A stretch of 64,000 nucleotides of DNA from an uncultured Planctomycetales bacterium (GTDB taxonomy: Bacteria > Omnitrophota > Gorgyraeia > Gygaellales > Profunditerraquicolaceae), in assembly GCA_964579435.1 (NCBI GenBank), contig CAZOGI010000012.1, forward strand, positions 5,781 to 69,780. The letters are read 5' to 3'. A program made the position numbers and the translations under genes. The notes under the pieces were generated by a model, which was not told the origin of the DNA, did no database searches, and was given only the letters and a program-made list of their open reading frames with translations. Shown in pieces: positions 21,480-40,342 of this stretch; the first letter of the stretch is position 1; the number at the start of each line of letters is the position of its first letter.

Positions 21480-22517
21480 GTGATGCGCAAGACCGTCGCA
21501 GAGATCGCCCGGATGCTCGATGGAGAGGTCGTCGGTGATGCCGATACCGTGATCACCGGCGTTGCCGGCATCCGCGAGGCCCGGCCCGGGGATATCTCTT
21601 TTGTCGCCAACCCCAAATACCTGCCGCTGCTGGAGAAGACCCAGGCCTCCGCGGTGATCACGGCCCGGGACATCACCTCCGGCAAGACCCTTATCCGCAC
21701 GGATAATCCGTCGTTGTCGTTCACGCGCCTGATTGCCGAGGTGCTGCCGGAGACGGCCCATCATCCCCGCGGGATCCACCCCGGTGCGGTTATCGGTCCC
21801 GACGTGCGTCTGGGCAAAGACGTGGCAGTGGGAGCGTATGCGGTCATCGGGGAGGGGACCTCGATCGGGGCCGGCACGGTCATCTATCCGGGCTGTTACG
21901 TCGGCAGAGACTGTTCGATCGGGCAAGGATGTATCCTGTACCCGAATGTTTCGGTGCGCGAGCGCGTGACGATCGGGGCGCGGGTGATCGTCCATAGCGG
22001 CACGGTGATCGGCTCGGACGGGTTCGGCTTCACGACGATCGAGGGCCGCCATTACAAGATCCCGCAGGTCGGGACCGTTGAGATCGGCGATGACGTGGAG
22101 ATCGGCGCCAACGTCGCCATCGACCGGGCGCGTTTCGACAAGACGATCATCGGTTCCGGGACCAAGATCGATAACCTGGTCCATATCGCCCACAACGTGG
22201 TTATCGGCGAGGGGTCTTTGGTCGTTGCCCAGGTGGGGGTATCCGGGTCGACCGTCATCGGCAAGGGCGTGACCCTGGCCGGTCAGGCGGGGCTGGTCGG
22301 CCATATTACCGTCGGCGACCACGCGATCATCGCCGCGCAGGCCGGGGTGACCAAATCGGTTCCTGCCGGGGTGATGGTGTCGGGATATCCGGCAAAGCCG
22401 CATGCGCAGGCCCTGAAGGTCAATGCCTGCATCCAGAACCTGCCGAGGCTCTTGGAGACAATCAAGGAATTGCAGAAACGCATCGAGCACCTGGAACAAC
22501 AGGCGAAAAAGACATGA
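21480..22517 (+). CDS. lpxD: UDP-3-O-acylglucosamine N-acyltransferase
   Basis: Hexapeptide-repeat LbH domain with the LpxD N-terminal region. Confidence 0.85.
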
Positions 22518-23821
22518 GCGCACAACAGACCATCCGCGCCGAGACGAGCCTCAGCGGCGTCGGCCTCCATATCGGTTCCACCGTTACGGTCCGTTTCCTT
22601 CCCGCCCCGGCCGATGCCGGCGTGGTATTCGTGCGTACCGACCTTCCGGGCAGACCTTCGGTCAAGGTGGGGGTGGAGTCGCTGATCAGCGGCAATAAGA
22701 GTCCCCGCCGTTCCTCCCTGGGCAGTGACGCCTTCAAGGTGCATACGATCGAGCATCTCATGGCTTCCCTCGCCGGCCTGGGGATCGATAACCTGGTGGT
22801 TGAGATCAACAACGAGGAGGTCCCGGGTCTGGACGGCAGCAGTGTGCGTTTCGCCGAAGCCCTGCTTGAGACCGGGCTGGTCCAGCAGTCGGCGCCGCGG
22901 CGGTATTGCAGCGTGCGCGAGCCTATCGTCATCGAAGAGGACGGCGCCTCGATCGCGGCGTTGCCCGCGGAGGATTTCCGTATTTCCTATACCCTCAGCT
23001 ATCCCCATCCGCTCCTGCGCGCTCAGTACCTGGACCTGTCCATCGACCGCGAGGTGTTCCTGCGAGAGATCGCCCCTGCCCGTACGTTCTGCCTGGAGAG
23101 CGAGGCAGAGAAGCTGCTCTCCCAGGGGGTCGGCTGCGGTGCGACCTACGAAAATACGCTGGTGGTCGGGGAAAAAGGAGTGATCCGCAACACCGTGCGT
23201 TTTCCCGACGAGTTCGTGCGGCATAAGATGCTGGACCTGATGGGAGATCTCTACGTGTTGGGCGTTCCCCTGAAGGCGCATATCGTCGCGGTCAAGAGCG
23301 GGCACGCCTTGAATCTGAAGCTCCTGCAGCGTCTCGCCGGGCAGCCCGCTTCTTCCGGCTCCGGCGTTGCGCGCGGGGACGGGCCGTGGACGGCGCCGCT
23401 GGATATCAACGCGATCAAACGGATCCTGCCGCATCGCGAGCCCTTTTTGCTGGTTGACCGCATCATCAGCATGGAGGTGGGCAAGCGCGCGACGGGCCTC
23501 AAGAACGTCACGATAAACGAGTATTTTTTCAAAGGCCACTTCCCCGACCGTCCGGTGATGCCCGGGGTTTTGATCGTCGAGGCGATGGCCCAGGTCGGCG
23601 GGGTGATGATGCTGGCGGCTCCCGAGAACAAGGGAAAACTTGCTTTCTTCATGGCAGTCAATAACGTGAAGTTCCGCAAGACCGTCGTGCCGGGTGACCA
23701 GCTCACCTTCGAGGTGGAGGCGGGAAAGATCAAAGCCAGGACCGGCCAGGTCTTCGGCAAGGCGTTTGTCGAAGGCAAGCTGGTCTGTGAAGCCGAATTG
23801 CTGTTTGCGATAGTGGAATAA
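22514..23821 (+). CDS. lpxC/fabZ: bifunctional UDP-3-O-acyl-N-acetylglucosamine deacetylase / 3-hydroxyacyl-ACP dehydratase (LpxC-FabZ fusion)
   Basis: The N-terminal ~280 aa is LpxC-like (HTIEHLMAS..). The C-terminal ~150 aa is FabZ hotdog ([24 protein letters not shown]). Confidence 0.85.
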
Positions 23822-23824
23822 GAT

Positions 23825-24622
23825 ATGCGCGCCCATGCGACTGCGGTCGTTTCTGCGAAAGCCCGGATAGCCGACGATGTGGTGATCGGTCCCTTCTCTG
23901 TCGTCACCGACGGGGTGACGATCGGCGCCGGCTGTGCCATAGGTGCGCACTGCCTTATCGACGGCAATACCGTTCTGGGCGAGCGCTGCCAGGTCTTTAC
24001 CGGGGCTGTTGTCGGCAGCCGGCCCCAGGACCTGAAATTCAAGAATGAGCGTTCTTTCCTGGAGATCGGGGAGGGCACCATCATCCGCGAGTACTGCACC
24101 CTCAATCCCGGGACCGGCGAGGGGGGTAAGACCGTTGTCGGAAGCCACAATCTGTTCATGGCCTATTCGCACGTCGCCCATGACTGCCGGGTCGGCAGCA
24201 ACTGTGTTTTCGCCAACAACGCGACCCTCGCCGGGCATGTGACGGTCGAGGACCGCGCGGTGATCGGCGGGCTGGTGGCGGTACATCAGTTCGTGCGCGT
24301 CGGCATGCTTTCGATCATCGGCGGATGCTCGAAGGTGGTGCAGGATATCCCGCCCTTTTCCACCTGCGACGGCCATCCGGCACGCATCTTCGGCCTGAAT
24401 CTCATCGGCCTGCGCCGCAACAGCGTCTCCAAAGAATCGATACGCCAGCTCGATCAGGCCTTGCGCATACTCTTCAACTCCGGGCATACGATCACCGTTG
24501 CGCTCGCCGAACTGGAGCGCGCTGGCCTCTCGGGTCCGCAGGTCGACTACCTCAAGCAGTTCGTCCGCAGCTCCGAGCGCGGCATCAGCCGTTCCTGCTC
24601 CCGCAAGTCTTCAACCGCATGA
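23825..24622 (+). CDS. lpxA: acyl-ACP--UDP-N-acetylglucosamine O-acyltransferase
   Basis: Hexapeptide repeats and the LpxA C-terminal helical domain. Confidence 0.85.
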   Translation: MRAHATAVVSAKARIADDVVIGPFSVVTDGVTIGAGCAIGAHCLIDGNTVLGERCQVFTGAVVGSRPQDLKFKNERSFLEIGEGTIIREYCTLNPGTGEGGKTVVGSHNLFMAYSHVAHDCRVGSNCVFANNATLAGHVTVEDRAVIGGLVAVHQFVRVGMLSIIGGCSKVVQDIPPFSTCDGHPARIFGLNLIGLRRNSVSKESIRQLDQALRILFNSGHTITVALAELERAGLSGPQVDYLKQFVRSSERGISRSCSRKSSTA

Positions 24623-25425
24623 AGCAACCGATCGGCGTCATCGCCGGCAACAGGAAGTTTCCCCTCGAGTTCTGCAGGGCCGCCCGCGCCCAGGGTGTTG
24701 CGACGGTGGCTATCGCGATCAAGGGCGATACGGCGCGCGCGATCTCTTCGGTTGCCGATAAGGTCTACTGGGTCGGGCTCGAGGAGTTCAGCCGTCTGCC
24801 GCAGATCCTCAAGGCAGAGGGCGTCACTCAGGTGGTGATGGCCGGGCAGATCAGTCCGCACCGGCTTTTTTCGCCGCAGGTAAAGCAGGATGAAACCCTC
24901 GCGCGGCTGTTGGAGAGGCTCTCTAATAAGAAAGCGGATACGATCTTCGGCGCGATTGCCGGGTACCTCAAAGAGAACGGGCTGGAGCTGTTGTCTTCGA
25001 CCCTCTTCATCCAGGAGCTCTTTCCCAAAAAAGGGACACTGACCAAATCACAGCCGCATTTCGACGGATGGGAGGATGTTTATTTCGGTTTTGAGCTGGC
25101 CAAAGAGGTTGCCTTCCTGGATATCGGCCAGACCGTCGCAGTCAAGGAAAAAGCGGTCGTGGCGGTCGAAGCCCTCGAAGGCACGGATAATCTCATCCGC
25201 AGGGCCGGCGCCCTTGCGCGCGGCGGCATCACGGTGGTCAAGGTGGCGAAGCCGAATCAGGACCCCCGCTTCGACGTTCCGGTCGTCGGGTTGAATACCG
25301 TACGCACCCTGATCAAGGTCCGGGCGCGCACCCTGGCTATTGAGGGGGAGAAGACCCTTTTCTTCGACCTTAAGGAGAGCGTTGGGTTGGCTGACCGGGC
25401 AGGATTGTCGATCGTTGCCATCTGA
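24619..25425 (+). CDS. lpxI: UDP-2,3-diacylglucosamine pyrophosphatase LpxI (DUF1009)
   Basis: MKQPIGVIAGNRKFPLEF N-terminus. The ATG overlaps the lpxA stop. The track ORF 24325.. is an upstream extension. Confidence 0.7.
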   Translation: MKQPIGVIAGNRKFPLEFCRAARAQGVATVAIAIKGDTARAISSVADKVYWVGLEEFSRLPQILKAEGVTQVVMAGQISPHRLFSPQVKQDETLARLLERLSNKKADTIFGAIAGYLKENGLELLSSTLFIQELFPKKGTLTKSQPHFDGWEDVYFGFELAKEVAFLDIGQTVAVKEKAVVAVEALEGTDNLIRRAGALARGGITVVKVAKPNQDPRFDVPVVGLNTVRTLIKVRARTLAIEGEKTLFFDLKESVGLADRAGLSIVAI

Positions 25426-26664: not shown

Positions 26665-26690
26665 GCGCCTATAGCTCAATTGGATAGAGC
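26665..26690 (+). pseudogene. tRNA-Arg 5'-half fragment (26 nt identical to the 5' end of the downstream tRNA-Arg, then a variant anticodon-stem strand CCAGC and the shared anticodon loop, then unrelated sequence)
   Basis: gcgcctatagctcaattggatagagc matches at 26665. It cannot form a cloverleaf. Confidence 0.6.
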
Positions 26691-26740
26691 GCCAGCCTTC
26701 GGAACAAATTTGACAAGTTTTGAGATGGTTTTAAGACACT

Positions 26741-26814
26741 GCGCCTATAGCTCAATTGGATAGAGCATCTGCCTTCGGAGCAGAGGGTTGGAGGTTCGAT
26801 TCCTCCTAGGCGCA
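26741..26814 (+). tRNA. tRNA-Arg(TCG)
   Basis: Full cloverleaf: acceptor GCGCCTA/TAGGCGC, anticodon arm TCTGC-CTTCGGA-GCAGA, T-arm GGAGG-TTCGATT-CCTCC. Confidence 0.8.
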
Positions 26815-27180
26815 TTTGAAAATGGTCCCTAAGCCAATTTGGTTTAGGGATTTTTTGTTGGTAGTATCACTTGGTGTGCAGGTATATCCTGTGGTATCGG
26901 TAAAGGATACTTTTTGGATACCAGACATTTTCACGGGATTTTAAGCCTAATGAAGCTTTTAAGATGTCTTTATAGAGCTTTAATTGTTTTTTATAAATAC
27001 CGCCAGTGCTATAATAATGTTATTTAGGGGGGTGATCTTGCAGATTATGGATACACAATCAAAAAGATCAGGAATACCCGGATCATGGGGCTGATGTTGG
27101 TTGGATGTTCGCTGTGCGCAGCGTTATATGTAGTGATGGGGCATCTTCGTCAGGGAAGATAAAACGCGGGAGGGCTGAAT

Positions 27181-28257
27181 ATGGAGAAGAAGAGTGTGCG
27201 TGTGGGCATCGTCGTGGTAGCGGCAGCAAGTACCCTAAATTTACTTACGGTTTTTCCGGCCGGAATTGATCGGGCAGAAGCCGAGATCGAGTCAGGCGCA
27301 TCATCGAGCGTTGTCTTGGTCCCTTCCGATGAAGACAGGGCCGGACCTTGGGGCGCCTTCACCGGAGGCAGCAGCAGGGTAAGGGAGATGTTCGATGGTG
27401 TTACGGACACGGGCGATTGGAAATTTGACGCGGCTCTTTCGCTTGATACCAACAAGACTATCGAGTCAATCAGTATCGCGCACAGCCTTCCCACAGAGCG
27501 AGACATTGACAGGGAGGGTTGGACGACATCGTCAAAGGTTCTGGTGTACGGAAAGACCGCGTATCCCCTGGTTGTCGATTACGGAGGCAAGCAGCTTAAT
27601 TTCGCCAATGACGATCCTTTGGGCAGTTATCCTGCAGGAACTCACCAGTTCAGCCTGTATGCGCAGAAGGAAAATTCGATTTTTTACGGCGGTACGCTGA
27701 GGATTAAATTTACCGACGGCAGCTCGGTGAGCGCGTCTATCCCTGCCCAAAGTATAGTGCAAGCAAAAGAGCCGTTTACTGAGTTGCCTTCGCCAAGGGA
27801 ATCCTCCGACGCGCGGCTTTCCGCGCAGTATCAACACGATCAGGAGAACCGCGTGGGCGGGTTTTATACCTTTGGTCCGGGTTCAGGAGGCTCGGCTGGG
27901 GAGCAGGACTTTAAATTCGAGGCAATCCTCGATATTGTATTGGTGAAGACACTTAAATCGATCGCGCTGATTCATTCCATCCCCGGACAAATATGGACTA
28001 CTGACCAGGGAAATTTGTATCCGATAGCGGTGTTCTATGGGGGAAGACAGTTGAACGATTCCTTCAATTCCCCTCTTGGCGAGTATCAGCCGGGAAGACA
28101 TGTGTTTGAACTGTATGTGCAGAAGGAGAGCCGCAATTTCGAAGGGGGTATCCTGACGTTTACTTTCGGCGACGGCACCAGCGCTTCCTGCACGTTGCCT
28201 AAAGAGGAAAGGACCGCCAAAGCGTTGAGCGAATCGTACCAAGAAGATGCCTATTAG
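27181..28257 (+). CDS. secreted hypothetical protein with two internal ~100-aa repeats, encoded inside a low-GC insert
   Basis: Signal peptide, then two homologous modules (..SISIAHSLP..WTTSSKVLVYGKTAYPLVVDYGGKQLN..PLGSYPAGTHQFSLYAQKE.. and ..SIALIHSIPGQIWTTDQGNLYPIAVFYGGRQLN..PLGEYQPGRHVFELYVQKE..). An AGGGCTGAAT Shine-Dalgarno-like stretch precedes the ATG. Confidence 0.65.
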   Translation: MEKKSVRVGIVVVAAASTLNLLTVFPAGIDRAEAEIESGASSSVVLVPSDEDRAGPWGAFTGGSSRVREMFDGVTDTGDWKFDAALSLDTNKTIESISIAHSLPTERDIDREGWTTSSKVLVYGKTAYPLVVDYGGKQLNFANDDPLGSYPAGTHQFSLYAQKENSIFYGGTLRIKFTDGSSVSASIPAQSIVQAKEPFTELPSPRESSDARLSAQYQHDQENRVGGFYTFGPGSGGSAGEQDFKFEAILDIVLVKTLKSIALIHSIPGQIWTTDQGNLYPIAVFYGGRQLNDSFNSPLGEYQPGRHVFELYVQKESRNFEGGILTFTFGDGTSASCTLPKEERTAKALSESYQEDAY

Positions 28258-28406
28258 AAGCATCGTTCTGACCGAGGGAGACCGGCATTGCTTATACTAC
28301 ATGCGGGGGAGGATACTGTTGTTAGCCGAGCGTAAGCCCCAATCCCAAGATTAAGCTTGTTGCTGAGGTGGACGGGTATAGCAAGGACTATCGTGCCACT
28401 TTTTTT

Positions 28407-28420
28407 GCGCCTATAGCTCA
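28407..28420 (+). repeat. 14-nt copy of the tRNA-Arg 5' end (gcgcctatagctca) followed by hairpin gccgc-N9-gcggc
   Basis: Direct sequence match, 59 nt upstream of the next tRNA. Confidence 0.5.
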
Positions 28421-28478
28421 GCCGCGAAATGCTTGCGGCATGATCTACAGGCGTAAGGAATAAAAACGTGTTATTATT

Positions 28479-28552
28479 GCGCCTATAGCTCAATTGGATA
28501 GAGCATCTGCCTTCGGAGCTGGGCGTTGCTGGTTCGAGTCCAGCTAGGCGCA
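28479..28552 (+). tRNA. tRNA-Arg(TCG), chimeric. The 5' 39 nt are identical to tRNA 26741, and the 3' half is a different allele, giving a U-U mismatch plus a G-U pair in the anticodon stem.
   Basis: Anticodon arm TCTGC-CTTCGGA-GCTGG and T-arm GCTGG-TTCGAGT-CCAGC. The 3' strand GCTGG would pair perfectly with the CCAGC strand carried by the fragment at 26692. Confidence 0.6.
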
Positions 28553-28754
28553 CGATTTTTCACCGCTGCTCATCTATTTTTTTCCTTCCCCTGAGATCTT
28601 TTCCTGCCGCTTCTCTCCCGTTATGCTTCACCGCATTTGCCGGTGTCTTTGTGTCTAGGGGCTTTTTAACGGAACTTTCTTCTGCCTCTTCCTGTCTAAT
28701 GGAGTGAAGAGGCAGGAGCGTAACCCCAAGCCGCGAGGACAAAAGGAGGCAGGT

Positions 28755-29144
28755 ATGAGACAGTGGGGAATCGCATTGGTGCTGGCAGGGGTCATTTTGG
28801 GAGGCGTATCGGTTTCTTACGCCAGTGACTGGGACGTCGCGGGCAAGGTTCTTACGGGAATCGAAGGGATGAGGATACTGACCGGCGGCAAGGTCGACCT
28901 GATCGGCACGATGACCGGGATAAACCGTCAGGACCGGGATCGCCACCGGGAATACGCCCACGGCCGTGGCCGCAACGAAAGCAGGGAATGCCGCAAAGTA
29001 TGGGTATCCCACTATGTCTGGGAGAAGCGGTGGGTCCCTGAGCATACCGAGCATGACCCGCGTTACGGCGAGATTGTCGTTGAAGGCCACTATGTCCGGT
29101 ACAGGGTTGAGCGCGGAGGCAGCTGGCGGTACGATTACCACTAA
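28755..29144 (+). CDS. small secreted hypothetical protein, Arg/Trp/Tyr-rich
   Basis: An AGGAGG Shine-Dalgarno precedes the ATG at 28755. Signal peptide MRQWGIALVLAGVILGGVSVSYA. Confidence 0.55.
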   Translation: MRQWGIALVLAGVILGGVSVSYASDWDVAGKVLTGIEGMRILTGGKVDLIGTMTGINRQDRDRHREYAHGRGRNESRECRKVWVSHYVWEKRWVPEHTEHDPRYGEIVVEGHYVRYRVERGGSWRYDYH

Positions 29145-29183
29145 CATAATCCGCTCAGGCAGTTCGGCATCCGGTTTTTTTTG

Positions 29184-29222
29184 GTGCGCATGCGCTTATT
29201 TTAGGCATGCGCACTTTTTTTC
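29184..29222 (+). terminator. rho-independent terminator
   Basis: gtgcgcatgc...gcatgcgcac stem followed by a T8 run. Confidence 0.75.
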
Positions 29223-29286
29223 CTTTAGGGGCGCCTTGGTGTCTCCCTGATGGCGTCCCCGTGTCCGTTTGTGAACTCAAAAATTC

Positions 29287-29315
29287 GTTTAAATCATGAT
29301 TTATTATGCTATAAT
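29287..29315 (+). promoter_or_regulatory. promoter with extended -10 (TGcTATAAT) upstream of the symporter operon. It is followed by a ~180-nt untranslated leader.
   Basis: AT-rich region with tgctataat at 29307-29315. The -35 match is weak. Confidence 0.4.
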
Positions 29316-29494
29316 GAATTCTCTGCATCGAAAGGCGGCCGATATCTTTTTGGATAAGATAACGGCTTATATTCCAAATAGATGAGTTCCTGCAAAAAGC
29401 GAACCGTGAGCGTATTTTCTGTGTGCTACATGCCCGTCCACTCGAAAACAATCCCCGAATCACCGGTACCGAGAAAAAAGCAAGGAGGTGCGTC

Positions 29495-29665
29495 ATGCTA
29501 GGGATCCAGGATCCGGGCGTATGGTTGGCGTATATTTTGTGCATCCTCAGCGCCGCCTTTTGCGCCGTGTACGGGTTCTCGCACTGGAATAAGGGCGAGG
29601 AACCGGTGTATACCGAAGACAAGAAATGGGTCGAGGCCGAAAAAGAGCTGGAAGAAAAACTCTAA
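29495..29665 (+). CDS. sodium:solute symporter small subunit (DUF4212-like), 56 aa
   Basis: An AGGAGG Shine-Dalgarno precedes it. It is a single-TM small protein immediately upstream of an SSS transporter, which is the typical pairing. Confidence 0.6.
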   Translation: MLGIQDPGVWLAYILCILSAAFCAVYGFSHWNKGEEPVYTEDKKWVEAEKELEEKL

Positions 29666-29681
29666 GAGCGGGGGAAACGGT

Positions 29682-31283
29682 ATGGATAATATGTTCATTC
29701 TCACCATTATCGTAGTCCTTTACCTGTTCGTGATCGGTTATTTGGGATATTACGGCTACCGAAGGACCAAAAACGCACTCGATTACCTGGTTGCCGGGCG
29801 CAGTATCCATCCCTTTGTCATGGCCGTTTCCTACGGTGCCACTTTTATCAGCACCTCGGCAATCGTCGGATTCGGGGGCGCGGCTGCGTTCTTCGGCATG
29901 GGGCTTTTGTGGCTGACCTTCCTTAATATATTCGTCGGTATCGCCATCGCCTTCATCGTCTTCGGCAAACGCACCCGCAAGATGGGCCATAACCTCGATG
30001 TACACACCTTTCCCGAGCTCCTCGGCCGCAGGTTTAATTCCACCTTTATCCAGGGTTTTGCCGGGCTGGTCGTATTCGTTTTCATGCCCCTGTATTCGGC
30101 CGCGGTCCTTATCGGAGCGGCGCGGTTCATAGAGATGACGTTTTCGACAACGATTAATTACAATGTGGCCCTTCTCATCTATACCTTGATTATCACCGCC
30201 TACGTGCTTGCCGGCGGGCTCAAGGGCGTCATGTACACCGATGCGCTGCAGGGGTCGATCATGTTCATGGGGATGGCGGCACTCCTGGTTCTGACGTATG
30301 CGAAACTGGGCGGCGTGGTCAACGCGCACCAGTCGCTCGCCGGGCTCCTGCCGCAGGTGCCGGAGAAGCTCAGCGCCCTCGGGCACCTGGGCTGGACCCA
30401 TATGCCCAAACCGGGGTCAAACCTGTGGTGGAACCTCGTTTCGACGATCGTTCTGGGCGTGGGTGTCGGCGTTCTCACCCAGCCGCAGCTGGCGGTACGT
30501 TTCATGACCGTCAAGAGCAACAAGGAGATTAACCGGGGTGTCGCCATCGGCGGCATCTTTATTCTGATGATGACCGGAGTCGCTTTTATCGTCGGCGCCC
30601 TCTCCAACGTCTATTTTTTCAATAACCCCGCTTTCGGCAAGATTTCCCTTGCGGTTGCCGGCGGCAACATCGATAAGATCATTCCACTCTACATCAACAG
30701 CGCCATGCCGGTCTGGTTCGTGTATCTCTTCATGCTCACGCTCCTGTCGGCGGCGATGTCGACAACCAGCTCGCAGTTTCATTCCATGGGCACCGCTATC
30801 GGCAGGGATTTCTTCGAGAAGACGCTCCTGCGCGGCAAGACCTCCAAATACACGATCCTCATCACGCGCATCGGTATCGTTATCGGCGTGCTGGTGACGG
30901 TGCTCTTGGGGTATAAGCTTCCCGGGAGTGTCATCGCGGTTGCCACGGCTATATTTTTCGGTCTCTGCGCCAACACCTTCCTGCCGACCTATGTCGGGAC
31001 CCTGTTCTGGAAAGGGATGACCAAGGCTGGCGCCATCGCCAGCATGCTCGCCGGATTCTGCGGCACCGCGTTCTGGCTGTTGTTCATCCACCAGAAGGAA
31101 TCCGAGGCGATAGGGCTGTGTAAGTTCATCTTCGATAAGCCGACGCTGGCGCAGTATCCTTGGACGGTGGTTGACCCGATCGTGGCGATATTGCCGGTCT
31201 CGTTCGCGGTTGCGCTGCTGGTGAGCCTGATCACCAAAAAGCCTTCCAAGGATTATATCGAACATTGTTTCAAGCATCTTTAA
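29682..31283 (+). CDS. sodium:solute symporter (SSS family) large subunit
   Basis: The 533-aa protein has about 13 TM helices and the SSS signature region GGLKGVMYTDALQ. Confidence 0.8.
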   Translation: MDNMFILTIIVVLYLFVIGYLGYYGYRRTKNALDYLVAGRSIHPFVMAVSYGATFISTSAIVGFGGAAAFFGMGLLWLTFLNIFVGIAIAFIVFGKRTRKMGHNLDVHTFPELLGRRFNSTFIQGFAGLVVFVFMPLYSAAVLIGAARFIEMTFSTTINYNVALLIYTLIITAYVLAGGLKGVMYTDALQGSIMFMGMAALLVLTYAKLGGVVNAHQSLAGLLPQVPEKLSALGHLGWTHMPKPGSNLWWNLVSTIVLGVGVGVLTQPQLAVRFMTVKSNKEINRGVAIGGIFILMMTGVAFIVGALSNVYFFNNPAFGKISLAVAGGNIDKIIPLYINSAMPVWFVYLFMLTLLSAAMSTTSSQFHSMGTAIGRDFFEKTLLRGKTSKYTILITRIGIVIGVLVTVLLGYKLPGSVIAVATAIFFGLCANTFLPTYVGTLFWKGMTKAGAIASMLAGFCGTAFWLLFIHQKESEAIGLCKFIFDKPTLAQYPWTVVDPIVAILPVSFAVALLVSLITKKPSKDYIEHCFKHL

Positions 31284-31298
31284 CCAAGGAGGAGTTGC

Positions 31299-32711
31299 AT
31301 GGCACGCCGAATTCTTATTTTTTTCGTTGCAGTGGCCTGTGCCGCGGCGTTCTCTGCCCAGGCGGGGTTCGCCCAGGAGAGCGCACCGCAGCCAAAGCAG
31401 TCCGATTTCAAGGGAAGCTGGGGCTCGGCATTCCGCATCCGGCATGAATATTGGAAAAACTGGCGGGATATGGATAACGACCAGCTGGATAACCGGAATT
31501 TCTTCCGGGTCAAGAGTTCGCTGTGGGGCAAGCTTGATTACCGCGAGGATATCTCTCTCTACGCCAAGCTGACCAACGAGTTCAAGCCCTATGCCTACTT
31601 TGCGAGCTCGACCGGTTCGGTCCCGGATAAATTCGCCACGAAAAAAGGGTACCATTTCGATATCAATGAAGTGGTCTTCGACAATCTTTACCTCGATATC
31701 CGCAATGTTTTGGATCTGCCGCTGGACCTGCGCATCGGCCGCCAGGATTTTCTGGGCGCCTACGGCGAAGGGCTGTTGATCATGGACGGCACCCCGCAGG
31801 ACGGCTCGCGGACCTATTACTTCAATGCGGTCAAAATCGGCCTGAAGGTCAACGATGAAAACACCGTCGATGCCATTTATCTGGCCGATCCCCGTGACGA
31901 GGAGATCCTTCCGGTCATCAATCGCCGCAGGCTGATCAACGTCAACGGTAACCGGAACGAGGACAAGCGGGTGAGCCTCCTGAATACCACGGATGAGCAG
32001 GGAGGGATCCTCTACTGGAAGAACAAGTCGATCGAAGGCCTGAGTTTGGAGGAGTATTATATCTTCAAGTACGAGGCAGAGGAAGGCGGTACCGGCCTGC
32101 AGGCTCAGAAGGGGTTGATCAATACCTTCGGTTCCTACGCCAAATACACCCGGGGAGGCTGGGGCGTGCGCGCCCAACTGGCCAGTCAGTTCGGCGATTA
32201 CGGGGATAACGACCGGGAAGGGCTGGGCGGGTTCGTGTATTTTGACCGCGAATGCGCGCAGCGCGCCTGGAAGCCCAAGGCAACCGTCGGCTACATCTAT
32301 CTCTCCGGTGACAAACGCAGCACCGCCAAGAACGAAGCCTGGGATCCGCTCTTTGCGCGGTATCCCTGGTTCTCCGAGATATACGTCAACAGCATGGCGA
32401 GCGAAACCGGCATTGCCGGCTACTGGACCAATATGCAGGCCTATCGCGCCGAGCTTTCGGTCAACCCGACCGCCAAGCTGAAGCTCTGCGGCGGCTACAG
32501 CTACCTGAGAGCCAATGCCCAGGTTGCGCCGAGCGCGATCTTCTCCGGCACCAACAAGAACCGCGGGCAGGTCCTGATGGGCAAGGTCGAATACGCCTTT
32601 AACAAGAACGTATCCGCCTACCTCCTGGGAGAGTATCTTATCCCCGGCAAGTTCTATAAGGATCAGGATCCCGCGATCTTCCTCAGGGAAGAGATCTCGA
32701 TCAAATTCTGA
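31299..32711 (+). CDS. outer-membrane beta-barrel porin, AlgE/alginate-export-like
   Basis: Signal peptide, alternating amphipathic beta-strand pattern and a C-terminal ..SIKF ending. Confidence 0.55.
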   Translation: MARRILIFFVAVACAAAFSAQAGFAQESAPQPKQSDFKGSWGSAFRIRHEYWKNWRDMDNDQLDNRNFFRVKSSLWGKLDYREDISLYAKLTNEFKPYAYFASSTGSVPDKFATKKGYHFDINEVVFDNLYLDIRNVLDLPLDLRIGRQDFLGAYGEGLLIMDGTPQDGSRTYYFNAVKIGLKVNDENTVDAIYLADPRDEEILPVINRRRLINVNGNRNEDKRVSLLNTTDEQGGILYWKNKSIEGLSLEEYYIFKYEAEEGGTGLQAQKGLINTFGSYAKYTRGGWGVRAQLASQFGDYGDNDREGLGGFVYFDRECAQRAWKPKATVGYIYLSGDKRSTAKNEAWDPLFARYPWFSEIYVNSMASETGIAGYWTNMQAYRAELSVNPTAKLKLCGGYSYLRANAQVAPSAIFSGTNKNRGQVLMGKVEYAFNKNVSAYLLGEYLIPGKFYKDQDPAIFLREEISIKF

Positions 32712-32803
32712 GCTTTTTTTCGACAGCGCAGATTATTGCTCTTTCCCGCTGAACGGGAATGGCGCGATAATCTGCGTTGCCGTCAGGAGCGGAAACGGAT
32801 CAC

Positions 32804-34537
32804 ATGGCTCATCAGCGAACGGATTTTTTGTCCGGCGACGAAGCTTTGGCCCAAGGCGCCTACGAGGCCGGGGTGCGGGTTGCCGCTTCGTATCCCGGCA
32901 CTCCGGCAACCGAGATCCTGGAGTACCTGGCGAAGCTTCCGCAGGTGCAGGCGCAGTGGGCGGTGAACGAAAAAGTCGCCTTCGAAGTCGCCGCGGGCGC
33001 CTCGGTCGCCGGGGTACGCGCCATTTTTAGCGCCAAGCACGTCGGCCTCAACGTCGCCATGGATCCCCTGATGACCTCGGCCTATGTCGGGGTGGGCGGG
33101 GGGTTCGTGGTGGTCAGCGGCGATGACCCCGGGATACACTCCTCGCAGAACGAGCAGGACAACCGGCTGCTGGCGCGCATGGCCGATATACCGCTCCTTG
33201 AGCCGTCGAGCCCCTCCGAGGCAAAGGATTTCGTGAAGCAGGCGCTGGCGCTGAGCGAGCGCTTCGACACCCCGGTCATGGTGCGCCTGACGACGCGCGT
33301 TTCGCACACCAAAGAGAACGTCGCGGTGGGGGAACGCGTATCGATCCCGCCGAAAGAATTCAAGATCGACGTCGAAAAATACGTTATGGTGCCGCGCAAC
33401 GCCTATAAGCGCCACCTGGAGTTGCGCGCGCGCATCGAGCGGCTCAAGCGCTATGCCGACCGCTCGCCCCTGAATGTCCAGACGCTCGGCAGCAGGAAAC
33501 TCGGTTTCATCACCGGCAGCGTCGCCTACCTGTACGCCAAAGAAATGTACCCGGACGCTTCATTCCTGAAGCTGGGGATGAGCTATCCGTTTCCCGAGAA
33601 GAAGATCCGCGCGTTTTGCCGCGCGGTCAAGGAAGTGCACGTGGTCGAGGAGCTGGAGCCGTTCCTCGAGGATGAACTGCGGCGCATGGGGCTGGCGGTC
33701 AAGGCCAAGCATCCGTCTTTTCGCGTCGGCGAGCTGCGGCCCGAGCTCATCCCGCAGATCGTTAAAAAAAAGAAAAAGGTGGAGCTGCCGGCTGCGACGC
33801 GCAAGCCGGTTCTGTGTCCCGGCTGCCCGCACCGCCAGTCTTTCTGGGTGCTCAAGAAGCTCAAGGCGGTGGTGCTGGGGGATATCGGCTGTTACACCCT
33901 CGGGGCGCTGCAGCCGTTGGGGGCGCTGCACACCTGCCTGTGCATGGGCAGCTCCGTAACCTTCCTGGAAGGCTTCCGGCGCGCCGGCCTCGGCAATACC
34001 GCGGCGGTTATCGGCGACTCGACGTTCGTGCATTCCGGAATTACCGGCCTGATCAACGCGGCGTACAACCGCTCGAAAGGATTGATCATCATCGTCGACA
34101 ACGCCACGACCGCGATGACCGGCAATCAGCCGCATCCGGGCACCGGGGTGACCGCCTCCGGGGTGCCGACGAAGCGCCTGAGCCTCGAAGAGATATGCAG
34201 GGTTTCGGGCGCCGACCACGTGGATGTCATTGATCCGTACCGGATCAAAGAATTCGAAACACTGGTGCAGAAGCGCATCGCCGAGGATGCGCTCTCGGTG
34301 ATCATCAGCCGTTTTCCCTGCCGGCTGATCGAACGCCTCAAGGCGCCTTCGCCCGTATACAATAAGGAGTTGTGCAAGAAGTGCGGTCTCTGCCTGGCGA
34401 TCAACTGCCCGTCGATTGAGAAGGCGCAGGACGGTTTTATCTCCATAAACAAGGCGGTATGCACCGGATGTAATCTCTGCACCACGGTTTGCGTCTACGG
34501 GGCTTTAAAGAAAAATGAAGAAAGAACGGATGCTTAA
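32804..34537 (+). CDS. iorA: indolepyruvate:ferredoxin oxidoreductase alpha subunit
   Basis: TPP-enzyme domains plus a C-terminal 2x4Fe-4S domain (CKKCGLC..CTGCNLC). Confidence 0.8.
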   Translation: MAHQRTDFLSGDEALAQGAYEAGVRVAASYPGTPATEILEYLAKLPQVQAQWAVNEKVAFEVAAGASVAGVRAIFSAKHVGLNVAMDPLMTSAYVGVGGGFVVVSGDDPGIHSSQNEQDNRLLARMADIPLLEPSSPSEAKDFVKQALALSERFDTPVMVRLTTRVSHTKENVAVGERVSIPPKEFKIDVEKYVMVPRNAYKRHLELRARIERLKRYADRSPLNVQTLGSRKLGFITGSVAYLYAKEMYPDASFLKLGMSYPFPEKKIRAFCRAVKEVHVVEELEPFLEDELRRMGLAVKAKHPSFRVGELRPELIPQIVKKKKKVELPAATRKPVLCPGCPHRQSFWVLKKLKAVVLGDIGCYTLGALQPLGALHTCLCMGSSVTFLEGFRRAGLGNTAAVIGDSTFVHSGITGLINAAYNRSKGLIIIVDNATTAMTGNQPHPGTGVTASGVPTKRLSLEEICRVSGADHVDVIDPYRIKEFETLVQKRIAEDALSVIISRFPCRLIERLKAPSPVYNKELCKKCGLCLAINCPSIEKAQDGFISINKAVCTGCNLCTTVCVYGALKKNEERTDA

Positions 34538-35036
34538 GCGGACGGTGAATATCCTCTTCTGCGGCACCGGCGGCCAGGGGGTGCTCTCCGCGGCGGAGAT
34601 CTGCGGCTGGGCGGCGCTCTTGGAGGGGTTTCACGTGAAAAAGTCGGAAGTGCACGGTATGGCCCAGCGCGGCGGTTCGGTCGAATCGCACCTGCGTTTC
34701 GGCGCCCGGGTCTATTCGCCGCTCATCCCTAGGGGGGCGGTTGATTTCCTGGTTCCCTTCCATGCCGACGAACAGGCGCGGCTTAAGGGTTTCCTGAAAC
34801 CCGGCGGGCACGACCTGCTGGCGCAGCTGGAAAAAGCGCAGCAGGCGGTTTCCGACCGGCGTTTCGTGAATATATACGTGCTGGGTGCTTTGTCCGTCTT
34901 TTTGCCGTTGCGGCAGGAGAGCTGGATGCGTTCGATCGAGAAGGTGCTCGCCGGCAAGCGCCTCGAGGAGAACAAAGAGGCTTTTTTAAAAGGGCGGGCC
35001 GCGGGAAAGATACGTCCTGAGCAGGAGGGTGCGTGA
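34515..35036 (+). CDS. iorB: indolepyruvate:ferredoxin oxidoreductase beta subunit
   Basis: FCGTGGQGV motif (PFOR gamma-like domain); overlaps the iorA 3' end. Confidence 0.8.
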   Translation: MKKERMLKRTVNILFCGTGGQGVLSAAEICGWAALLEGFHVKKSEVHGMAQRGGSVESHLRFGARVYSPLIPRGAVDFLVPFHADEQARLKGFLKPGGHDLLAQLEKAQQAVSDRRFVNIYVLGALSVFLPLRQESWMRSIEKVLAGKRLEENKEAFLKGRAAGKIRPEQEGA

Positions 35037-36337
35037 TGATCTGGAACGAGAAGATGGAGTGCTCCTCTCCCAAAGAGTTGAAGGCTCTGCAGAGCGGGAG
35101 GCTGGGGGAGACCGTCAAATATCTGTATAAGCACTCTGGCGTGTACCGGAAAAAGCTGGATGAGTTCGGGGTCGCTGCGGGGGACATCAAGAGTATAGAG
35201 GACATCGTCAAGCTTCCCTTTACGGTCAAGGACGACCTGCGGGACAGTTATCCGTTCAAGCTGTTTTCCGTTCCTCTTTCGGAGATAGCCGAGATCCATG
35301 TCTCCAGCGGCACCACCGGCAATCCGACCGTGGTCGGATACACCAAAGAGGACGTCAAGCTGTGGGCCGAGGTCATGGCGCGCACCCTCTGCTGCGCGGG
35401 GGCGCAACCCGGAGACATGATCCAGATCGCCTACGGCTACGGTCTCTTCACCGGGGGGCTGGGGTTCCATTACGGCGCGCACGAGATGGGATTGACGGTC
35501 ATCCCGACCTCTTCGGGCCAGACCAAGCGCCAGTTGAAGCTGATGAACGATTTCCGGCCGCGGATTTTGGCCTGCACGCCCAGCTATGCCCTGTACATGG
35601 TGGAAGAGGCAAAGGAAATGGGGATCGATCCCCGCGCATCGAGCTGGCAGATCGGCGTCTTCGGCGCCGAGCCGTGGAGCGAGCTGATGCGCAGGGAGAT
35701 CGAGAAGCGCTGGGATATGCTCGCCACCGACGTCTACGGGCTCTCGGAGATCATCGGCCCCGGGGTCGCGCAGGAGTGCACGCACAAGAAGGGGCTGCAT
35801 ATCTGGTGGGATGTCTTTTACCCGGAGGTCATCAATCCCAAGACCGGCGAGTATGCCAAAGAGGGCCAGGAGGGCGAGCTGGTGATCACCACGCTGACCA
35901 AGCGCGGGATCCCGCTGCTGCGTTACCGCACGCGCGACCGGGTGGCGATCACCTACGAGAAATGCAAATGCGGCCGGACCACCCCGCGCATCAGCAAGAT
36001 CACCGGGCGCACCGACGACATGATCATCGTGCGCGGCATCAACGTCTTCCCGTCGCAGATCGAGCACGTGCTGCTGGGGATCGAGGGCACCCAGCCGCAT
36101 TACCAGATCATCGTCGACCGCAAGGCAAGCCATCTGGACGAGCTGGAGGTGCTGGTGGAGGTGGAGCCGAAGATATTTTCCGACGAGCTCAAGCAGCTCA
36201 AGGCCCTGGAGGACAAGATCACCCGCGAGATCGAATCCGTGCTGGGTATCGGGGCGAAGGTGCGGCTGGTTGAGCCCAAGACGATCGAGCGCAGCGAAGG
36301 CAAGGCCAGGCGCGTCGTGGACAAACGAGTGCTCTAG
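35033..36337 (+). CDS. paaK: phenylacetate-CoA ligase family adenylate-forming enzyme
   Basis: SSGTTGNPTVV AMP-binding motif. Start is GTG 35033 or ATG 35036. Confidence 0.8.
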   Translation: MMIWNEKMECSSPKELKALQSGRLGETVKYLYKHSGVYRKKLDEFGVAAGDIKSIEDIVKLPFTVKDDLRDSYPFKLFSVPLSEIAEIHVSSGTTGNPTVVGYTKEDVKLWAEVMARTLCCAGAQPGDMIQIAYGYGLFTGGLGFHYGAHEMGLTVIPTSSGQTKRQLKLMNDFRPRILACTPSYALYMVEEAKEMGIDPRASSWQIGVFGAEPWSELMRREIEKRWDMLATDVYGLSEIIGPGVAQECTHKKGLHIWWDVFYPEVINPKTGEYAKEGQEGELVITTLTKRGIPLLRYRTRDRVAITYEKCKCGRTTPRISKITGRTDDMIIVRGINVFPSQIEHVLLGIEGTQPHYQIIVDRKASHLDELEVLVEVEPKIFSDELKQLKALEDKITREIESVLGIGAKVRLVEPKTIERSEGKARRVVDKRVL

Positions 36338-36346
36338 GAGGGGACG

Positions 36347-36778
36347 ATGAAACTGACGCAGATTTCGGTTTTTCTGGAGAACCGCAAGGGCCGGCTCCAC
36401 GATGTGTGCGCGCTCTTAGGCAAGAACAAGATCAATATCCGCGCCCTGACCGTCGCCGAGAGCCAGGATTTCGGGGTCTTGCGCGTCGTCGTCGACAAGC
36501 CGCAGGAGGCGCTGAACCTGCTGCGGGCGAACAATTTTACCGCCAATTTCACCGAGATCGTCGCGGTCGAGGTGGAGGATAAGCCCGGCGGCCTGGCGCG
36601 GATCCTGAAGCTCCTGCAGGACAACGCCATCAATGTCGAGTATATGTACGGTTTCGTCGAGAAATTCTCCAGCAAGGCTCTCTTGGTCTTCCGGTTCGAG
36701 AACACCGATAAGGCTTTGACGCTGCTTAAGAAACACAAGGTTTGCGTGATGCCTAAAGACAAGATCGTCCAGTTGTGA
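36347..36778 (+). CDS. ACT domain protein
   Basis: Tandem ACT fold, 143 aa, typical companion of PaaK/IOR genes. Confidence 0.7.
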   Translation: MKLTQISVFLENRKGRLHDVCALLGKNKINIRALTVAESQDFGVLRVVVDKPQEALNLLRANNFTANFTEIVAVEVEDKPGGLARILKLLQDNAINVEYMYGFVEKFSSKALLVFRFENTDKALTLLKKHKVCVMPKDKIVQL

Positions 36779-36788
36779 GTAGCCGGCC

Positions 36789-38099
36789 ATGGAAATCTCC
36801 TATTTCGACAAGAAAGCCGAAACGATCCCGCGTGCCCAACTGCGCCTCCTGCAGCTGAAGCGCCTGCGCCGAAGCGTTGATTCCGCGCTGCGGACACCCT
36901 TTTACCGGGCCCGCCTGCAGAAGGCCGGGATCCGCAGCGGCCGGGATATCCGTTCCCTCGAGGACATCAAGAATATCCCTTTCACCACCAAGGACGATCT
37001 GCGCGAGTGTTACCCCCACGGTTTGCTGGCGGTGAGCCTGGATAAGGTGGTGCGCCTGCATACCTCAAGCGGTACGACCGGGGTGCCGACGGTGATCTAC
37101 CACACCAAGGCCGACCTGAAGAGCTGGACGGAGCTGGTTGCCCGCTGCATCATGGCCAGCGGCGCCACGCACCGGGATGTTTTCCAGAACATGATCGGCT
37201 ACGGGCTTTTCACCGGGGGCTTGGGCCTGCATTATGGCGCCGAGCGGGTGGGGATGACGGTCATCCCGTCGGCCAGCGGCAACACCAAACGCCAGCTGCA
37301 GCTGATGAAGGATTTCGGCACGACGGTGATCCATGCCACTCCCAGCTATGCCCTGCACATCCACTCGCAGTTCGCCGAGAATAATATTACGCTTAAAAAC
37401 CTGAAGCTCAAGAAGGCCTTTTTGGGCGCCGAACCATACTCCGAGAATACCCGCAAAAAGCTGGAAGAGATCTACCGCATCGATGTCTATAACTCCTATG
37501 GTCTAAGCGAGATGAACGGCCCGGGGGTCAGTTTCGAGTGCGTGTATAAAGACGCGATGCACACCTGGGAGGACGCGTTTTTCCTTGAGCTGATCAATCC
37601 CAAGACCGGCGAAAACGTCAAGGATGGCCAGCAGGGGGAGATCGTCTTTACCACGCTCTGCCGCCAGGCGACGCCTTTGCTGCGCTATCGCACGCGGGAT
37701 CTCTCCTGCGTCGATCCGGCGCCGTGCCGCTGCAAACGCACCCACCGGCGCATCTGCCGCATCACCGGCCGCTCCGACGACATGCTGATCGTCAACGGCG
37801 TCAACGTCTTCCCCTCGCAGATCGAGGAAGTGATCATGAAGATCCCGGAGGTCGGCACCAACTACCAGGTGTACCTGGAAAAAGAGGGTGCGCTGGATAA
37901 GATGACGGTGAAGGTCGAGATCTATTCCAAGATGTTCAAGGGCGAGGTGTCCGAGCTGGACCGCCTGAAGCAGAAGATCCGCGAAGATCTGCACGCCTCG
38001 ATCATCCTGCGTCCCAGCGTCGAGCTGCACGAGCCGGGGAGTCTGCCGGTTTTCGAAGGCAAGGCAAAACGCGTGGTGGATAACCGCGCCAAGCTCTAA
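36789..38099 (+). CDS. paaK: phenylacetate-CoA ligase family enzyme, paralog 2
   Basis: SSGTTGVPTVI motif; about 40% identical to paralog 1 by eye. Confidence 0.8.
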   Translation: MEISYFDKKAETIPRAQLRLLQLKRLRRSVDSALRTPFYRARLQKAGIRSGRDIRSLEDIKNIPFTTKDDLRECYPHGLLAVSLDKVVRLHTSSGTTGVPTVIYHTKADLKSWTELVARCIMASGATHRDVFQNMIGYGLFTGGLGLHYGAERVGMTVIPSASGNTKRQLQLMKDFGTTVIHATPSYALHIHSQFAENNITLKNLKLKKAFLGAEPYSENTRKKLEEIYRIDVYNSYGLSEMNGPGVSFECVYKDAMHTWEDAFFLELINPKTGENVKDGQQGEIVFTTLCRQATPLLRYRTRDLSCVDPAPCRCKRTHRRICRITGRSDDMLIVNGVNVFPSQIEEVIMKIPEVGTNYQVYLEKEGALDKMTVKVEIYSKMFKGEVSELDRLKQKIREDLHASIILRPSVELHEPGSLPVFEGKAKRVVDNRAKL

Positions 38100-38119
38100 T
38101 TGCGCCGGAGGAGGTTGGT

Positions 38120-38545
38120 ATGGCCCAGGAAGTGAATGTGTTCGTCGATAACCGGCCGGGAAGGCTGCAGTCGGTGGCGGCGGTGCTGGCGGATAAGAAG
38201 ATCAACGTGCGCACCATGACGCTCCAGGACCGCACGGAATTCGGCCTGATGAAGCTGATCGTCGACAAGCCGGAGGCGGCGCACCTGGCCTTGAGCGAAA
38301 AAGGCTTTGCCTGTGCCCTCAAGGAGATCGTAGCGGTGCTCTTGGCCGATAGGCCGGGGAGCTTCCAGAAGCTGATGGACGTCTTTGCCAAGCACCAGGT
38401 CAATATCGTCGATGCCTACGGCTTCGTGATCGAGTCGAATAAGAGCGCCGTTTTCTGCGTCGAGGTCAAGGATCCGAAGAAGATGAAGGCGCAGCTGGAA
38501 AAAGAAGGGTTCAAGGTCCTCGAAGAAGAGCTCTACGTTTTTTAG
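38120..38545 (+). CDS. ACT domain protein, paralog 2
   Basis: Architecture mirrors the ORF at 36347. Confidence 0.7.
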   Translation: MAQEVNVFVDNRPGRLQSVAAVLADKKINVRTMTLQDRTEFGLMKLIVDKPEAAHLALSEKGFACALKEIVAVLLADRPGSFQKLMDVFAKHQVNIVDAYGFVIESNKSAVFCVEVKDPKKMKAQLEKEGFKVLEEELYVF

Positions 38546-38546
38546 C

Positions 38547-39368
38547 ATGATCATCGATATCCACACCCACGCCTGGCCGGATAAGATCGCGGCAAAGGCC
38601 CGCGAAAACCTGGAGACCCTTTTTAAGGTCAAGCTGGTCGGCGAGCCGACCGTTTCGACGCTGTTGGCGTACATGGACCGTAACCGGATCGATACGAGCG
38701 TCCTCTGCGGGGTGGCGACGCGGCCGGATCAGGTTCCCGGGATCAATGATTGGCTTTTAGGGCTGCGCAGCGAGCGGCTGAAGGTATTTTGCGCGCTGCA
38801 TCCTGATTATCCCGAATGGCAACAGGAGCTCTCGCGCATCCGGGCGCGCGGGGACGGGATCAAGTTCCAGCCGGAATTCCAGGATTTCTACGTCGATGAG
38901 GAGCGGCTGGGGCCGTTGTATGCCGAAATCGAACGGCTACAGCTGCCGGTCTTGTTCCACTGCGGCGAGGAGCTTTCCGGCACGATGCTGGTGCGTTCGG
39001 CGCCGAAGCGGATCCTGGCGGTGAAAGAGCGTTTTCCCCGTCTCATCCTCATTGCTGCTCATTTCGGCGGGTTCAACCTGCTCGCCGAATCGGAGCAGTA
39101 CATACTCGGGAGGGATATTTACCTCGATACCGCTTTTTTCTTCAATTATGTCGCGCCGCAGGAAGCGCGCCGGCTGCTTTTGCGGCATCGCCCCGACCGG
39201 CTGCTGTTCGGAACGGATTTTCCGCTGATCGACCAACAACAGGACTTGGATTATCTAAAAGGCCTGGCGTTGCCCGATGAGCTCATGGAGCGCATCCTGT
39301 ATCGCAACGCCCGGGAACTCCTGTGCGCATCTGCGGCTCATTGCAATAACGCATCAAATGACCTATAA
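38547..39368 (+). CDS. amidohydrolase-2 family metal-dependent TIM-barrel hydrolase
   Basis: IIDIHTHAWP N-terminus and HxH..H..D pattern. Confidence 0.65.
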   Translation: MIIDIHTHAWPDKIAAKARENLETLFKVKLVGEPTVSTLLAYMDRNRIDTSVLCGVATRPDQVPGINDWLLGLRSERLKVFCALHPDYPEWQQELSRIRARGDGIKFQPEFQDFYVDEERLGPLYAEIERLQLPVLFHCGEELSGTMLVRSAPKRILAVKERFPRLILIAAHFGGFNLLAESEQYILGRDIYLDTAFFFNYVAPQEARRLLLRHRPDRLLFGTDFPLIDQQQDLDYLKGLALPDELMERILYRNARELLCASAAHCNNASNDL

Positions 39369-39394
39369 TAATAGAAAAGCAAAAGAGGTGTAGC

Positions 39395-39766: not shown

Positions 39767-39777
39767 TTCTTCCCTTC

Positions 39778-40328: not shown

Positions 40329-40342
40329 GGGGGGGCGGGGGG

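Follow-up and report, generated by a model that had tools for sequence, protein, structure and literature searches.

A predicted exported protein with two Ig-like modules of an uncurated domain family, encoded by a small insert in a split tRNA-Arg gene

The open reading frame (ORF) described here lies on contig CAZOGI010000012.1 of assembly GCA_964579435.1, within a 64,000-nt stretch (positions 5,781 to 69,780, hereafter "the window") to which all coordinates refer. It encodes a protein of 358 amino acids (aa), P0001, composed of two related modules and an N-terminus with the features of an export signal (Table 1). The ORF is flanked by two tRNA-Arg(TCG) genes, each with a partial copy of the tRNA 5' end upstream, and it differs in composition from its surroundings: the guanine-plus-cytosine (GC) content of the insert is 49.3%, compared to 59.4% for the window, the spacer 5' of the ORF has 40.3%, and the GC content at third codon positions is 0.588, compared to 0.73-0.86 in most neighbouring genes (~0.78). 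The initial annotation, made from the sequence alone, described this gene as the only ORF in a low-GC insert. It is indeed the sole long ORF, as the remaining ones overlap positions 27181-28257 in other frames, and the two peptide strings quoted there are both found in its translation. The insert is also real, but its limits had to be refined to ~26704-28517 on the basis of the split tRNA halves, and its complete tRNA-Arg gene had been omitted. The sigma-70-like promoter match in the spacer is at the chance level (1 site found, 2.3 expected). The mature form of the protein would be acidic (43 D+E versus 27 K+R), with a single Cys residue. An independent Logan assembly of SRR12133403 contains a 1685-bp contig (L001), which starts at window position 26835, terminates with 40 nt of the repeated tRNA 5' half ending at 28519 (a span of exactly 1685 nt in the window), and encodes the identical 358-aa protein; the agreement refers to the span length, the end sequence and the protein translation rather than to a base-by-base identity of the whole contig.

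Table 1. Features of the insertion region, in window coordinates
Feature	Position	Strand	Source or remark
Native 5' half of tRNA-Arg(TCG), displaced; acceptor stem through anticodon loop, ending ...CCAGCCTTCGGA; left junction (attL-like)	26665..26703	+	
Inserted DNA, ~1.81 kb	26704..28517	+	ends uncertain within the shared core GCCTTCGGA(GC)
tRNA-Arg(TCG) "A", complete, carried by the insert	26740..26815	+	ARAGORN; Rfam tRNA 73.6 bits
Strong terminator-like hairpin, 13 pairs, then T run, directly after tRNA-Arg A	26824..26852	+	
Sigma-70-like promoter match TTTATA-17-AATAAT	26990..27018	+	spacer 5' of the ORF; weak consensus match
Shine-Dalgarno sequence GGGAGGG	27168..27174	+	6 nt 5' of ATG; read from sequence
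ORF, predicted exported two-module protein P0001, 358 aa	27181..28257	+	ATG to TAG
Putative Sec signal peptide with AXA site (or signal anchor), aa 1-34: MEKKSVR, hydrophobic core, PAGIDRAEA/E	27181..27282	+	sequence
Module 1, predicted beta-sandwich, aa 39-190, extra insert TERDIDRE ... SSKVLVYGKT	27295..27750	+	family-profile domain E-value 4.7e-42
Module 2, predicted beta-sandwich, aa 209-342	27805..28206	+	family-profile domain E-value 1.4e-38
Short additional copy of the tRNA 5' end, GCGCCTATAGCTCAG	28407..28421	+	72 nt 5' of tRNA-Arg B
tRNA-Arg(TCG) "B", hybrid; right junction (attR-like)	28479..28553	+	ARAGORN; Rfam 61.3 bits

The relationship of the two modules, proposed in the initial annotation, is clear from a BLASTP comparison of aa 1-190 with aa 191-358 (38% identity over 141 columns, E-value 3e-27), whereas their size of ~100 aa was underestimated, the actual length being ~135-150 aa each. 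The conserved region reaches N-terminally to include the motifs E-D/N-R-x-G ... F-x-P-G ... D-W/F and one extra strand. Among 87 modules that average ~33% identity to the query module, five positions (D, W, T, Q and D) are near-invariant, and both modules of P0001 retain every residue that is near-invariant in the family. Searches of curated libraries (Pfam-A 2025, NCBIfam 20, PHROGs 4, PADLOC 2) returned no Pfam family for P0001 at E<=10 and nothing relevant for P0001 or the module in NCBIfam and PHROGs; when the 87 modules were compared individually with Pfam, no family matched more than 2 of them, and those matches were weak. A role of P0001 in a defence system was dropped, as PADLOC gave no match. 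The profile of the 87 modules found no relative among the PDB sequences (best E-value 1.2), and a search of the literature brought up no specific description of such a domain. The module thus proved as unrecognisable in curated libraries and solved structures as had been stated, and none of the matches pointed to a housekeeping domain.

A word-indexed search of 5.8 billion proteins with the whole protein retrieved only P0001 itself and one weak relative, and the same type of search with the 87-module alignment retrieved nothing. This poor yield reflects a limit of the index: when 1.84 billion cluster representatives were searched exhaustively by HMMER, using a three-module profile, 304 clusters were identified at E<=1e-3, of which 206 reached E<=1e-10 and 41 reached E<=1e-30. 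These clusters, together with the lack of a match in any library, identify the module as a genuine, uncurated domain family. In the best 151 family proteins, the number of full-length modules is one in 98 cases and two in 42, with a maximum of six (the six-module protein has eight matched stretches by the HMMER count), and the proteins reach lengths of ~2,000 aa. The Pfam domains that accompany the module in 52 members are all extracytoplasmic: PG_binding_1 (19), Kre9_KNH immunoglobulin-like (Ig-like) domains (10), TIG (7), PKD (6), dockerin (3), DsbA/thioredoxin (3), and isolated lectin-like domains or carbohydrate-binding modules. In 77 of the 151 proteins the last module ends at most 60 aa from the C-terminus, often followed by a short amphipathic helix. 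The named members comprise two from Patescibacteria (P0018, P0026) and one each from Candidatus Omnitrophota (P0011), Diapherotrites/Iainarchaeum (P0152), Nanoarchaeota (P0008) and a Planctomycetales metagenome-assembled genome (MAG; P0007).

Two further features of the family were observed. In Patescibacteria-type members (P0009, P0014, P0018, P0021, P0043, P0046 and others) the C-terminus lies 25-35 aa past the last module and forms a short amphipathic helix with the pattern [AS]-x-[WFIL]-D-[AS]-[ILM]-x3-[ILF], which may be an unrecognised sorting or anchoring signal. Some members outside the candidate phyla radiation possess, beside the module, a second uncurated region of ~130 aa (P0047, aa ~250-350; P0050, ~170-290; P0011, ~230-330) with the motifs W-x-G-x-W ... 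VFDA-x-W ... GYYHG-x-LSCD-x-K ... GDW.

The AlphaFold2 model of module 2 (aa 216-345), built from the 87 aligned modules, is of high confidence (predicted local distance difference test, pLDDT, 94.3; predicted template modelling score, pTM, 0.88) and all-beta, with seven strands (28-37, 41-50, 56-58, 65-71, 90-99, 108-114, 119-124). The full-length model of P0001 (pLDDT 80.8, pTM 0.68) displays two sandwiches with the same seven-strand pattern, an extra strand before each of them, and low confidence at the N-terminus and in the C-terminal helix. According to these models the module belongs to the broad structural class of Ig-like beta-sandwiches. Hence, of the "unknown fold" in the initial annotation, the unknown family stands, but the architecture is predicted with confidence. 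A specific solved Ig-like family could not be assigned: Foldseek comparison of module 2 with the PDB gave no match at E<=1e-3 (best E-values 0.014-0.1, template modelling (TM) scores <=0.43, to assorted Ig-like sandwiches), and the search against BFVD gave nothing better. The best matches of the full-length model in the PDB, generic tandem sandwiches (the N2N3 regions of microbial surface components recognizing adhesive matrix molecules (MSCRAMMs), integrin legs, transglutaminase barrels, and RbmA), have TM scores of only 0.13-0.24.

The N-terminus of P0001 reveals a charged n-region (K3, K4, R7), a hydrophobic stretch V8-I29 with a core of 18-22 residues (Kyte-Doolittle 15-residue maximum 2.18 at aa 8-22), a P/G break and the sequence A32-E-A34/E35, which makes Sec-dependent export plausible. 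The segment could possibly act as a signal anchor instead of a cleaved signal. A hydrophobic segment also opens the two proteins that most resemble P0001 in layout, P0007 (329 aa) and P0008 (451 aa), in which it is followed by module 1 with the same insert and module 2 with the motif IPGQIW. In pairwise comparisons of the three proteins, identity is 48-51% between first modules, 49-55% between second modules and 38-44% between module 1 and module 2. As like modules are more similar than unlike ones, the duplication must be older than the divergence of P0001, P0007 and P0008, and both copies have been maintained. The loci of P0007 and P0008 are syntenic neither with the window nor with one another, contain no nearby tRNA, and are close to the ambient GC content (~57% in a ~60% genome and ~33% in a ~32% genome, respectively). 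The planctomycetal P0007 gene adjoins a DPBB lytic-transglycosylase-like gene and DUF3108 genes. The P0008 locus (L003 5240-11912, Nanoarchaeota MAG JBBSYD010000001) contains a series of secreted proteins rich in Cys (galaxin-like repeats, DUF4215, MopE-type motifs, STIG1-like, Laminin_G_3), and P0008 itself has a Cys-rich C-terminal extension.

The tRNA sequences around the ORF reveal how its DNA is joined to the chromosome. The fragment at 26665-26703 has the anticodon-stem strand CCAGC, identical to that of the intact tRNA-Arg of a related locus (L004, see below); it is cut right after the anticodon loop and is followed by non-tRNA sequence. Its missing complement is found on the other side of the insert, where GCTGG at 28518-28522 pairs perfectly with CCAGC. 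This strand opens the 3' half of tRNA-Arg B (28518-28553), which is of the native type and resembles L004 (GCTGGGCGTTGCTGGTTCGAGTCCAGC; GCTGG GCGTT GCTGG TTCGAGT CCAGC), while the 5' part of the same gene (28479-28517) is identical to tRNA-Arg A. As a consequence of this hybrid structure the anticodon stem of tRNA-Arg B (TCTGC/GCTGG) contains a T:T mismatch. tRNA-Arg A has a fully paired anticodon stem (TCTGC/GCAGA) and a T arm (GGAGG/CCTCC) unlike the native type. The segment with the ORF is bounded by two identical 41-nt tRNA 5' halves. Because the native halves flank positions 26704-28517, ~1.81 kb must have been inserted into the anticodon loop across a core of 9-11 nt, GCCTTCGGA(GC). The additional short copy of the tRNA 5' end has a 72-nt spacing from the hybrid tRNA, which mirrors the 76 nt of the native fragment 5' of tRNA-Arg A.

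The uninterrupted arrangement was found in L004, a relative recovered by a metagenome scan with the upstream radical-SAM protein (55% identity for radical SAM). It is collinear with 18.6-26.6 kb and 41.4-45.0 kb of the window, and encodes radical SAM, one intact tRNA-Arg(TCG), tRNA-Lys(CTT) after 115 nt, and later tRNA-Ser(TGA); as the relative is distant (55-75% aa identity), the comparison does not date the insertion. The module is absent from all 80 loci related to the insertion region, which leaves no conserved syntenic homologue among these relatives. The split native tRNA-Arg, the intact tRNA of the syntenic relative and the deviant composition all support the assignment of the gene to a horizontally acquired, tRNA-targeted genomic island, as suggested in the initial annotation. 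An integrase was found neither among the ORFs of the insert nor, as a domain, in 10 genes at 22.5-34.5 kb and 10 genes at 34.5-43.1 kb. A viral origin was considered as well: two IMG/VR scans with protein profiles, an exact scan for the insert tRNA, and PHROGs yielded nothing, and in a blastn search against phage genomes only tRNAs matched.

Taken together, we propose, with a probability of about 0.6, that P0001 is an exported acidic tandem-sandwich protein, which was acquired horizontally on a tRNA-Arg-targeting element and probably serves in the cell envelope as a module for binding or adhesion. The protein would consist of a Sec-type signal or anchor and two tandem ~140-aa seven-strand beta-sandwiches of a previously uncatalogued family, and would thus represent the minimal, free-standing version of a domain that elsewhere builds large surface proteins, displayed in the envelope in a non-enzymatic capacity. 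The binding role is suggested by the kinds of domains that accompany the module, by its terminal position and by how strongly its polar and aromatic residues are conserved. The gene probably arrived in a small integrative element of which it was the only protein-coding cargo. This element would have recombined, over the 9-11 nt core, with the resident tRNA-Arg(TCG) gene in its anticodon loop, displaced the native 5' half and brought in its own intact tRNA-Arg, the integrase having since been lost as the element degraded. The empty site or the circular junction predicted by this model would read ...ATCTGCCTTCGGA joined directly to ACAAATTTG...

Several observations weigh against this proposal. 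No integrase, excisionase or inverted repeats remain, so it is from the junction anatomy alone that we infer site-specific integration, and it is the tRNA's 5' half that was displaced, an unusual geometry for tRNA islands. The 15-nt tRNA fragment at 28407 is unaccounted for by a single insertion; it may be the scar of an earlier event. A hydrophobic stretch of 18-22 residues is long for a signal peptide of a diderm, hence P0001 may remain anchored in the inner membrane, and in a diderm host a Sec signal alone brings a protein only as far as the periplasm. The taxonomic spread of the family is known from the six named members only. Finally, Ig-like sandwiches act as inert spacers as often as they act as binders.

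This last point leads to the main rival of the binding role, namely a passive role of the module as stalk, spacer or envelope scaffold, without a specific ligand, with P0001 as a small structural component of the envelope. Such a role would agree with the generic Ig-like sandwich fold, with the presence of up to six or more repeats in one protein, with their interleaving with the classical stalk domains Kre9_KNH, TIG and PKD, and with the generic tandem sandwiches (integrin legs, transglutaminase barrels) among the full-length Foldseek matches. However, the conservation is unusually strong and involves many polar positions, as exemplified by the five near-invariant residues of the 87 modules, and the preferential terminal location (77/151) is that of adhesive domains in fibrillar adhesins. 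A mere spacer is also hard to square with a free-standing two-module protein, whose architecture is kept across bacteria and archaea, and we therefore regard this alternative as unlikely, albeit more serious than any other.

The remaining rivals are minor. The gene could be a non-functional passenger in the decaying remnant of a degraded mobile element, unexpressed or useless to the host, given that the element is just 1.8 kb long and without an integrase, that the promoter match does not exceed chance and that the composition has not drifted towards that of the host; yet all 358 codons are intact, the Shine-Dalgarno sequence is strong, all near-invariant family residues are present in both modules, and an independent assembly yielded the same sequence, which together make a passenger improbable. 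A still less probable explanation is an assembly artefact, in which a 1.7-kb segment of another organism was threaded into the contig via the repeated tRNA sequence. The sequence comes from a MAG, the two identical 5' halves bound the segment, and L001 (26835-28519) ends inside this repeat and consequently does not confirm the outer joins. On the other hand, the diagnostic junctions are located at the 9-11 nt core and not at the 41-nt repeat: there unique DNA follows the native 5' half, and the native 3' half follows the foreign 5' half. A k-mer mis-join would not leave the two complementary halves of a single native tRNA on opposite sides of the insert. Least credible of all is a periplasmic copper chaperone domain of the PCuAC, YcnI or CopC type, an idea prompted by the top-ranking Foldseek matches of the single module, which include PCuAC, PmoF, YcnI and a CopC-like domain. 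These matches are not significant (E-values 0.027-0.11, TM scores 0.20-0.41), module 2 is devoid of Met, the family lacks a conserved His/Met motif, on which account the idea was rejected, and the partner domains are adhesin-like rather than metal-handling.

What is new in this work is an extracytoplasmic domain family of Ig-like type that has not been curated. Little is known of how episymbionts and parasites of nano size recognise and attach to their partners, and their large surface proteins are mostly unannotated; here, a well-conserved ~140-aa domain is common to such proteins, with named members (six in all) from three of those lineages. Given the confident structural model and the clear boundaries, the module can be curated as a new family, which would allow several hundred protein clusters to be annotated, and structural and ligand studies could conveniently use the small soluble two-module version. 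The split tRNA offers a case of horizontal acquisition that is clean and can be dated, in a phylum represented solely by MAGs, and its integration geometry is unusual, in that the 5' half is displaced and a spare tRNA is carried in. We speculate that the module could even be a host- or partner-recognition domain of ultra-small, cell-associated prokaryotes (Patescibacteria, DPANN archaea, Omnitrophota), exchanged across the boundary between bacteria and archaea, with P0001 as its minimal mobile form on a miniature tRNA-Arg-targeting element that carries a spare tRNA for the safe breakage of the host gene. We advance this extended version only as a doubtful one. If the family were indeed a recognition domain specific to nano-sized symbionts, the finding would gain importance; if the module turns out to be a simple spacer, the finding shrinks to one new entry among Ig-like families.

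The host is most likely a member of Omnitrophota, judging from the LpxC-FabZ fusion encoded in the window, whose best named relatives (66-68% identity) are from Candidatus Omnitrophica MAGs. Cells of Omnitrophota are reported to be ultra-small for the most part and to have host-dependent traits, with giant surface ORFs that are poorly annotated, and similar giant proteins have been cited for Patescibacteria and Nanohaloarchaeota (PMC10066038). The lpxC-fabZ fusion is found together with lpxA and lpxI at 22514-25425, as in a diderm with lipid A, and an archease-rtcB pair is located at 41150-43080; nearly all genes around 22514-43080 are on the + strand. Between tRNA-Arg B and tRNA-Lys the window contains a ~12 kb block (28554-40669), where L004 has 115 nt. 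The block is of normal GC content, and no integrase was found there. It encodes a small exported protein, an SSS symporter with a small accessory ORF, an Alginate_exp-type porin, subunits of an indolepyruvate-type ferredoxin oxidoreductase, two phenylacetate-CoA-ligase-like proteins, two ACT proteins and an amidohydrolase. At 40726-41060, between tRNA-Lys and the archease/rtcB genes, a 157-nt unit is present in 2.1 perfectly identical tandem copies. The unit starts with the last 17 nt of tRNA-Lys(CTT), GACTCCATCATGGCCCA, and the array may represent repeated att-type scars or a tandem duplication that happened recently.

Among known surface proteins, the N2-N3 regions of MSCRAMMs (FnBPA, 4b60; SdrG, 1r19; SdrE, 5wtb; ClfB, 4f27) are the best full-length Foldseek matches of P0001 (E-values 3e-6 to 1e-4) and likewise comprise two consecutive sandwiches after a signal peptide, which in P0001 is putative. 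The likeness is limited to "two sandwiches in a row" (TM scores 0.18-0.24, root-mean-square deviation ~17 A), and P0001 differs in the lack of an LPXTG anchor and a latch motif and in its diderm host. P0001 does not qualify as an MSCRAMM-type adhesin, as it has neither LPXTG nor a C-terminal hydrophobic segment and the TM scores are low despite E-values of ~1e-5. A further parallel may be sought in the stalk and adhesive beta-sandwiches of bacterial fibrillar adhesins (surveys by Monzon and Bateman, PMC8286594, PMC9210967). No sequence match or significant structural match connects their families to the module, which in addition occurs in a small, free-standing two-domain protein. However, the module resembles them in being extracytoplasmic, tandem, Ig-like and probably non-enzymatic, and its family shares with fibrillar adhesins the long multi-domain proteins, the anchor at one end (here PG_binding_1) and the often terminal position.

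The insert, in turn, can be compared with two kinds of tRNA-associated elements. From tRNA-gene islands in the Islander definition (PMC4383910) it differs by the absence of an integrase, the size of only 1.8 kb, the displacement of the 5' instead of the 3' half, the short core, the same-isotype tRNA brought along and the stem-mismatched regenerated tRNA, whereas the split target tRNA, the displaced fragment at one end and the regenerated tRNA at the other, the foreign composition and the absence from a relative are the same. The tRNA-dependent lysogeny of actinobacteriophages (Guerrero-Bustamante and Hatfull 2024, PMC10865867) concerns actinobacterial hosts, while the host of the insert is an uncultivated diderm; moreover, the insert contains neither phage genes nor an integrase, and a hybrid tRNA is regenerated at its right junction. 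In both cases, however, a core of ~10 bp (here 9-11 nt) lies inside a tRNA gene, and the element carries a same-isotype tRNA (here tRNA-Arg A), able to compensate for the damage to the host gene.

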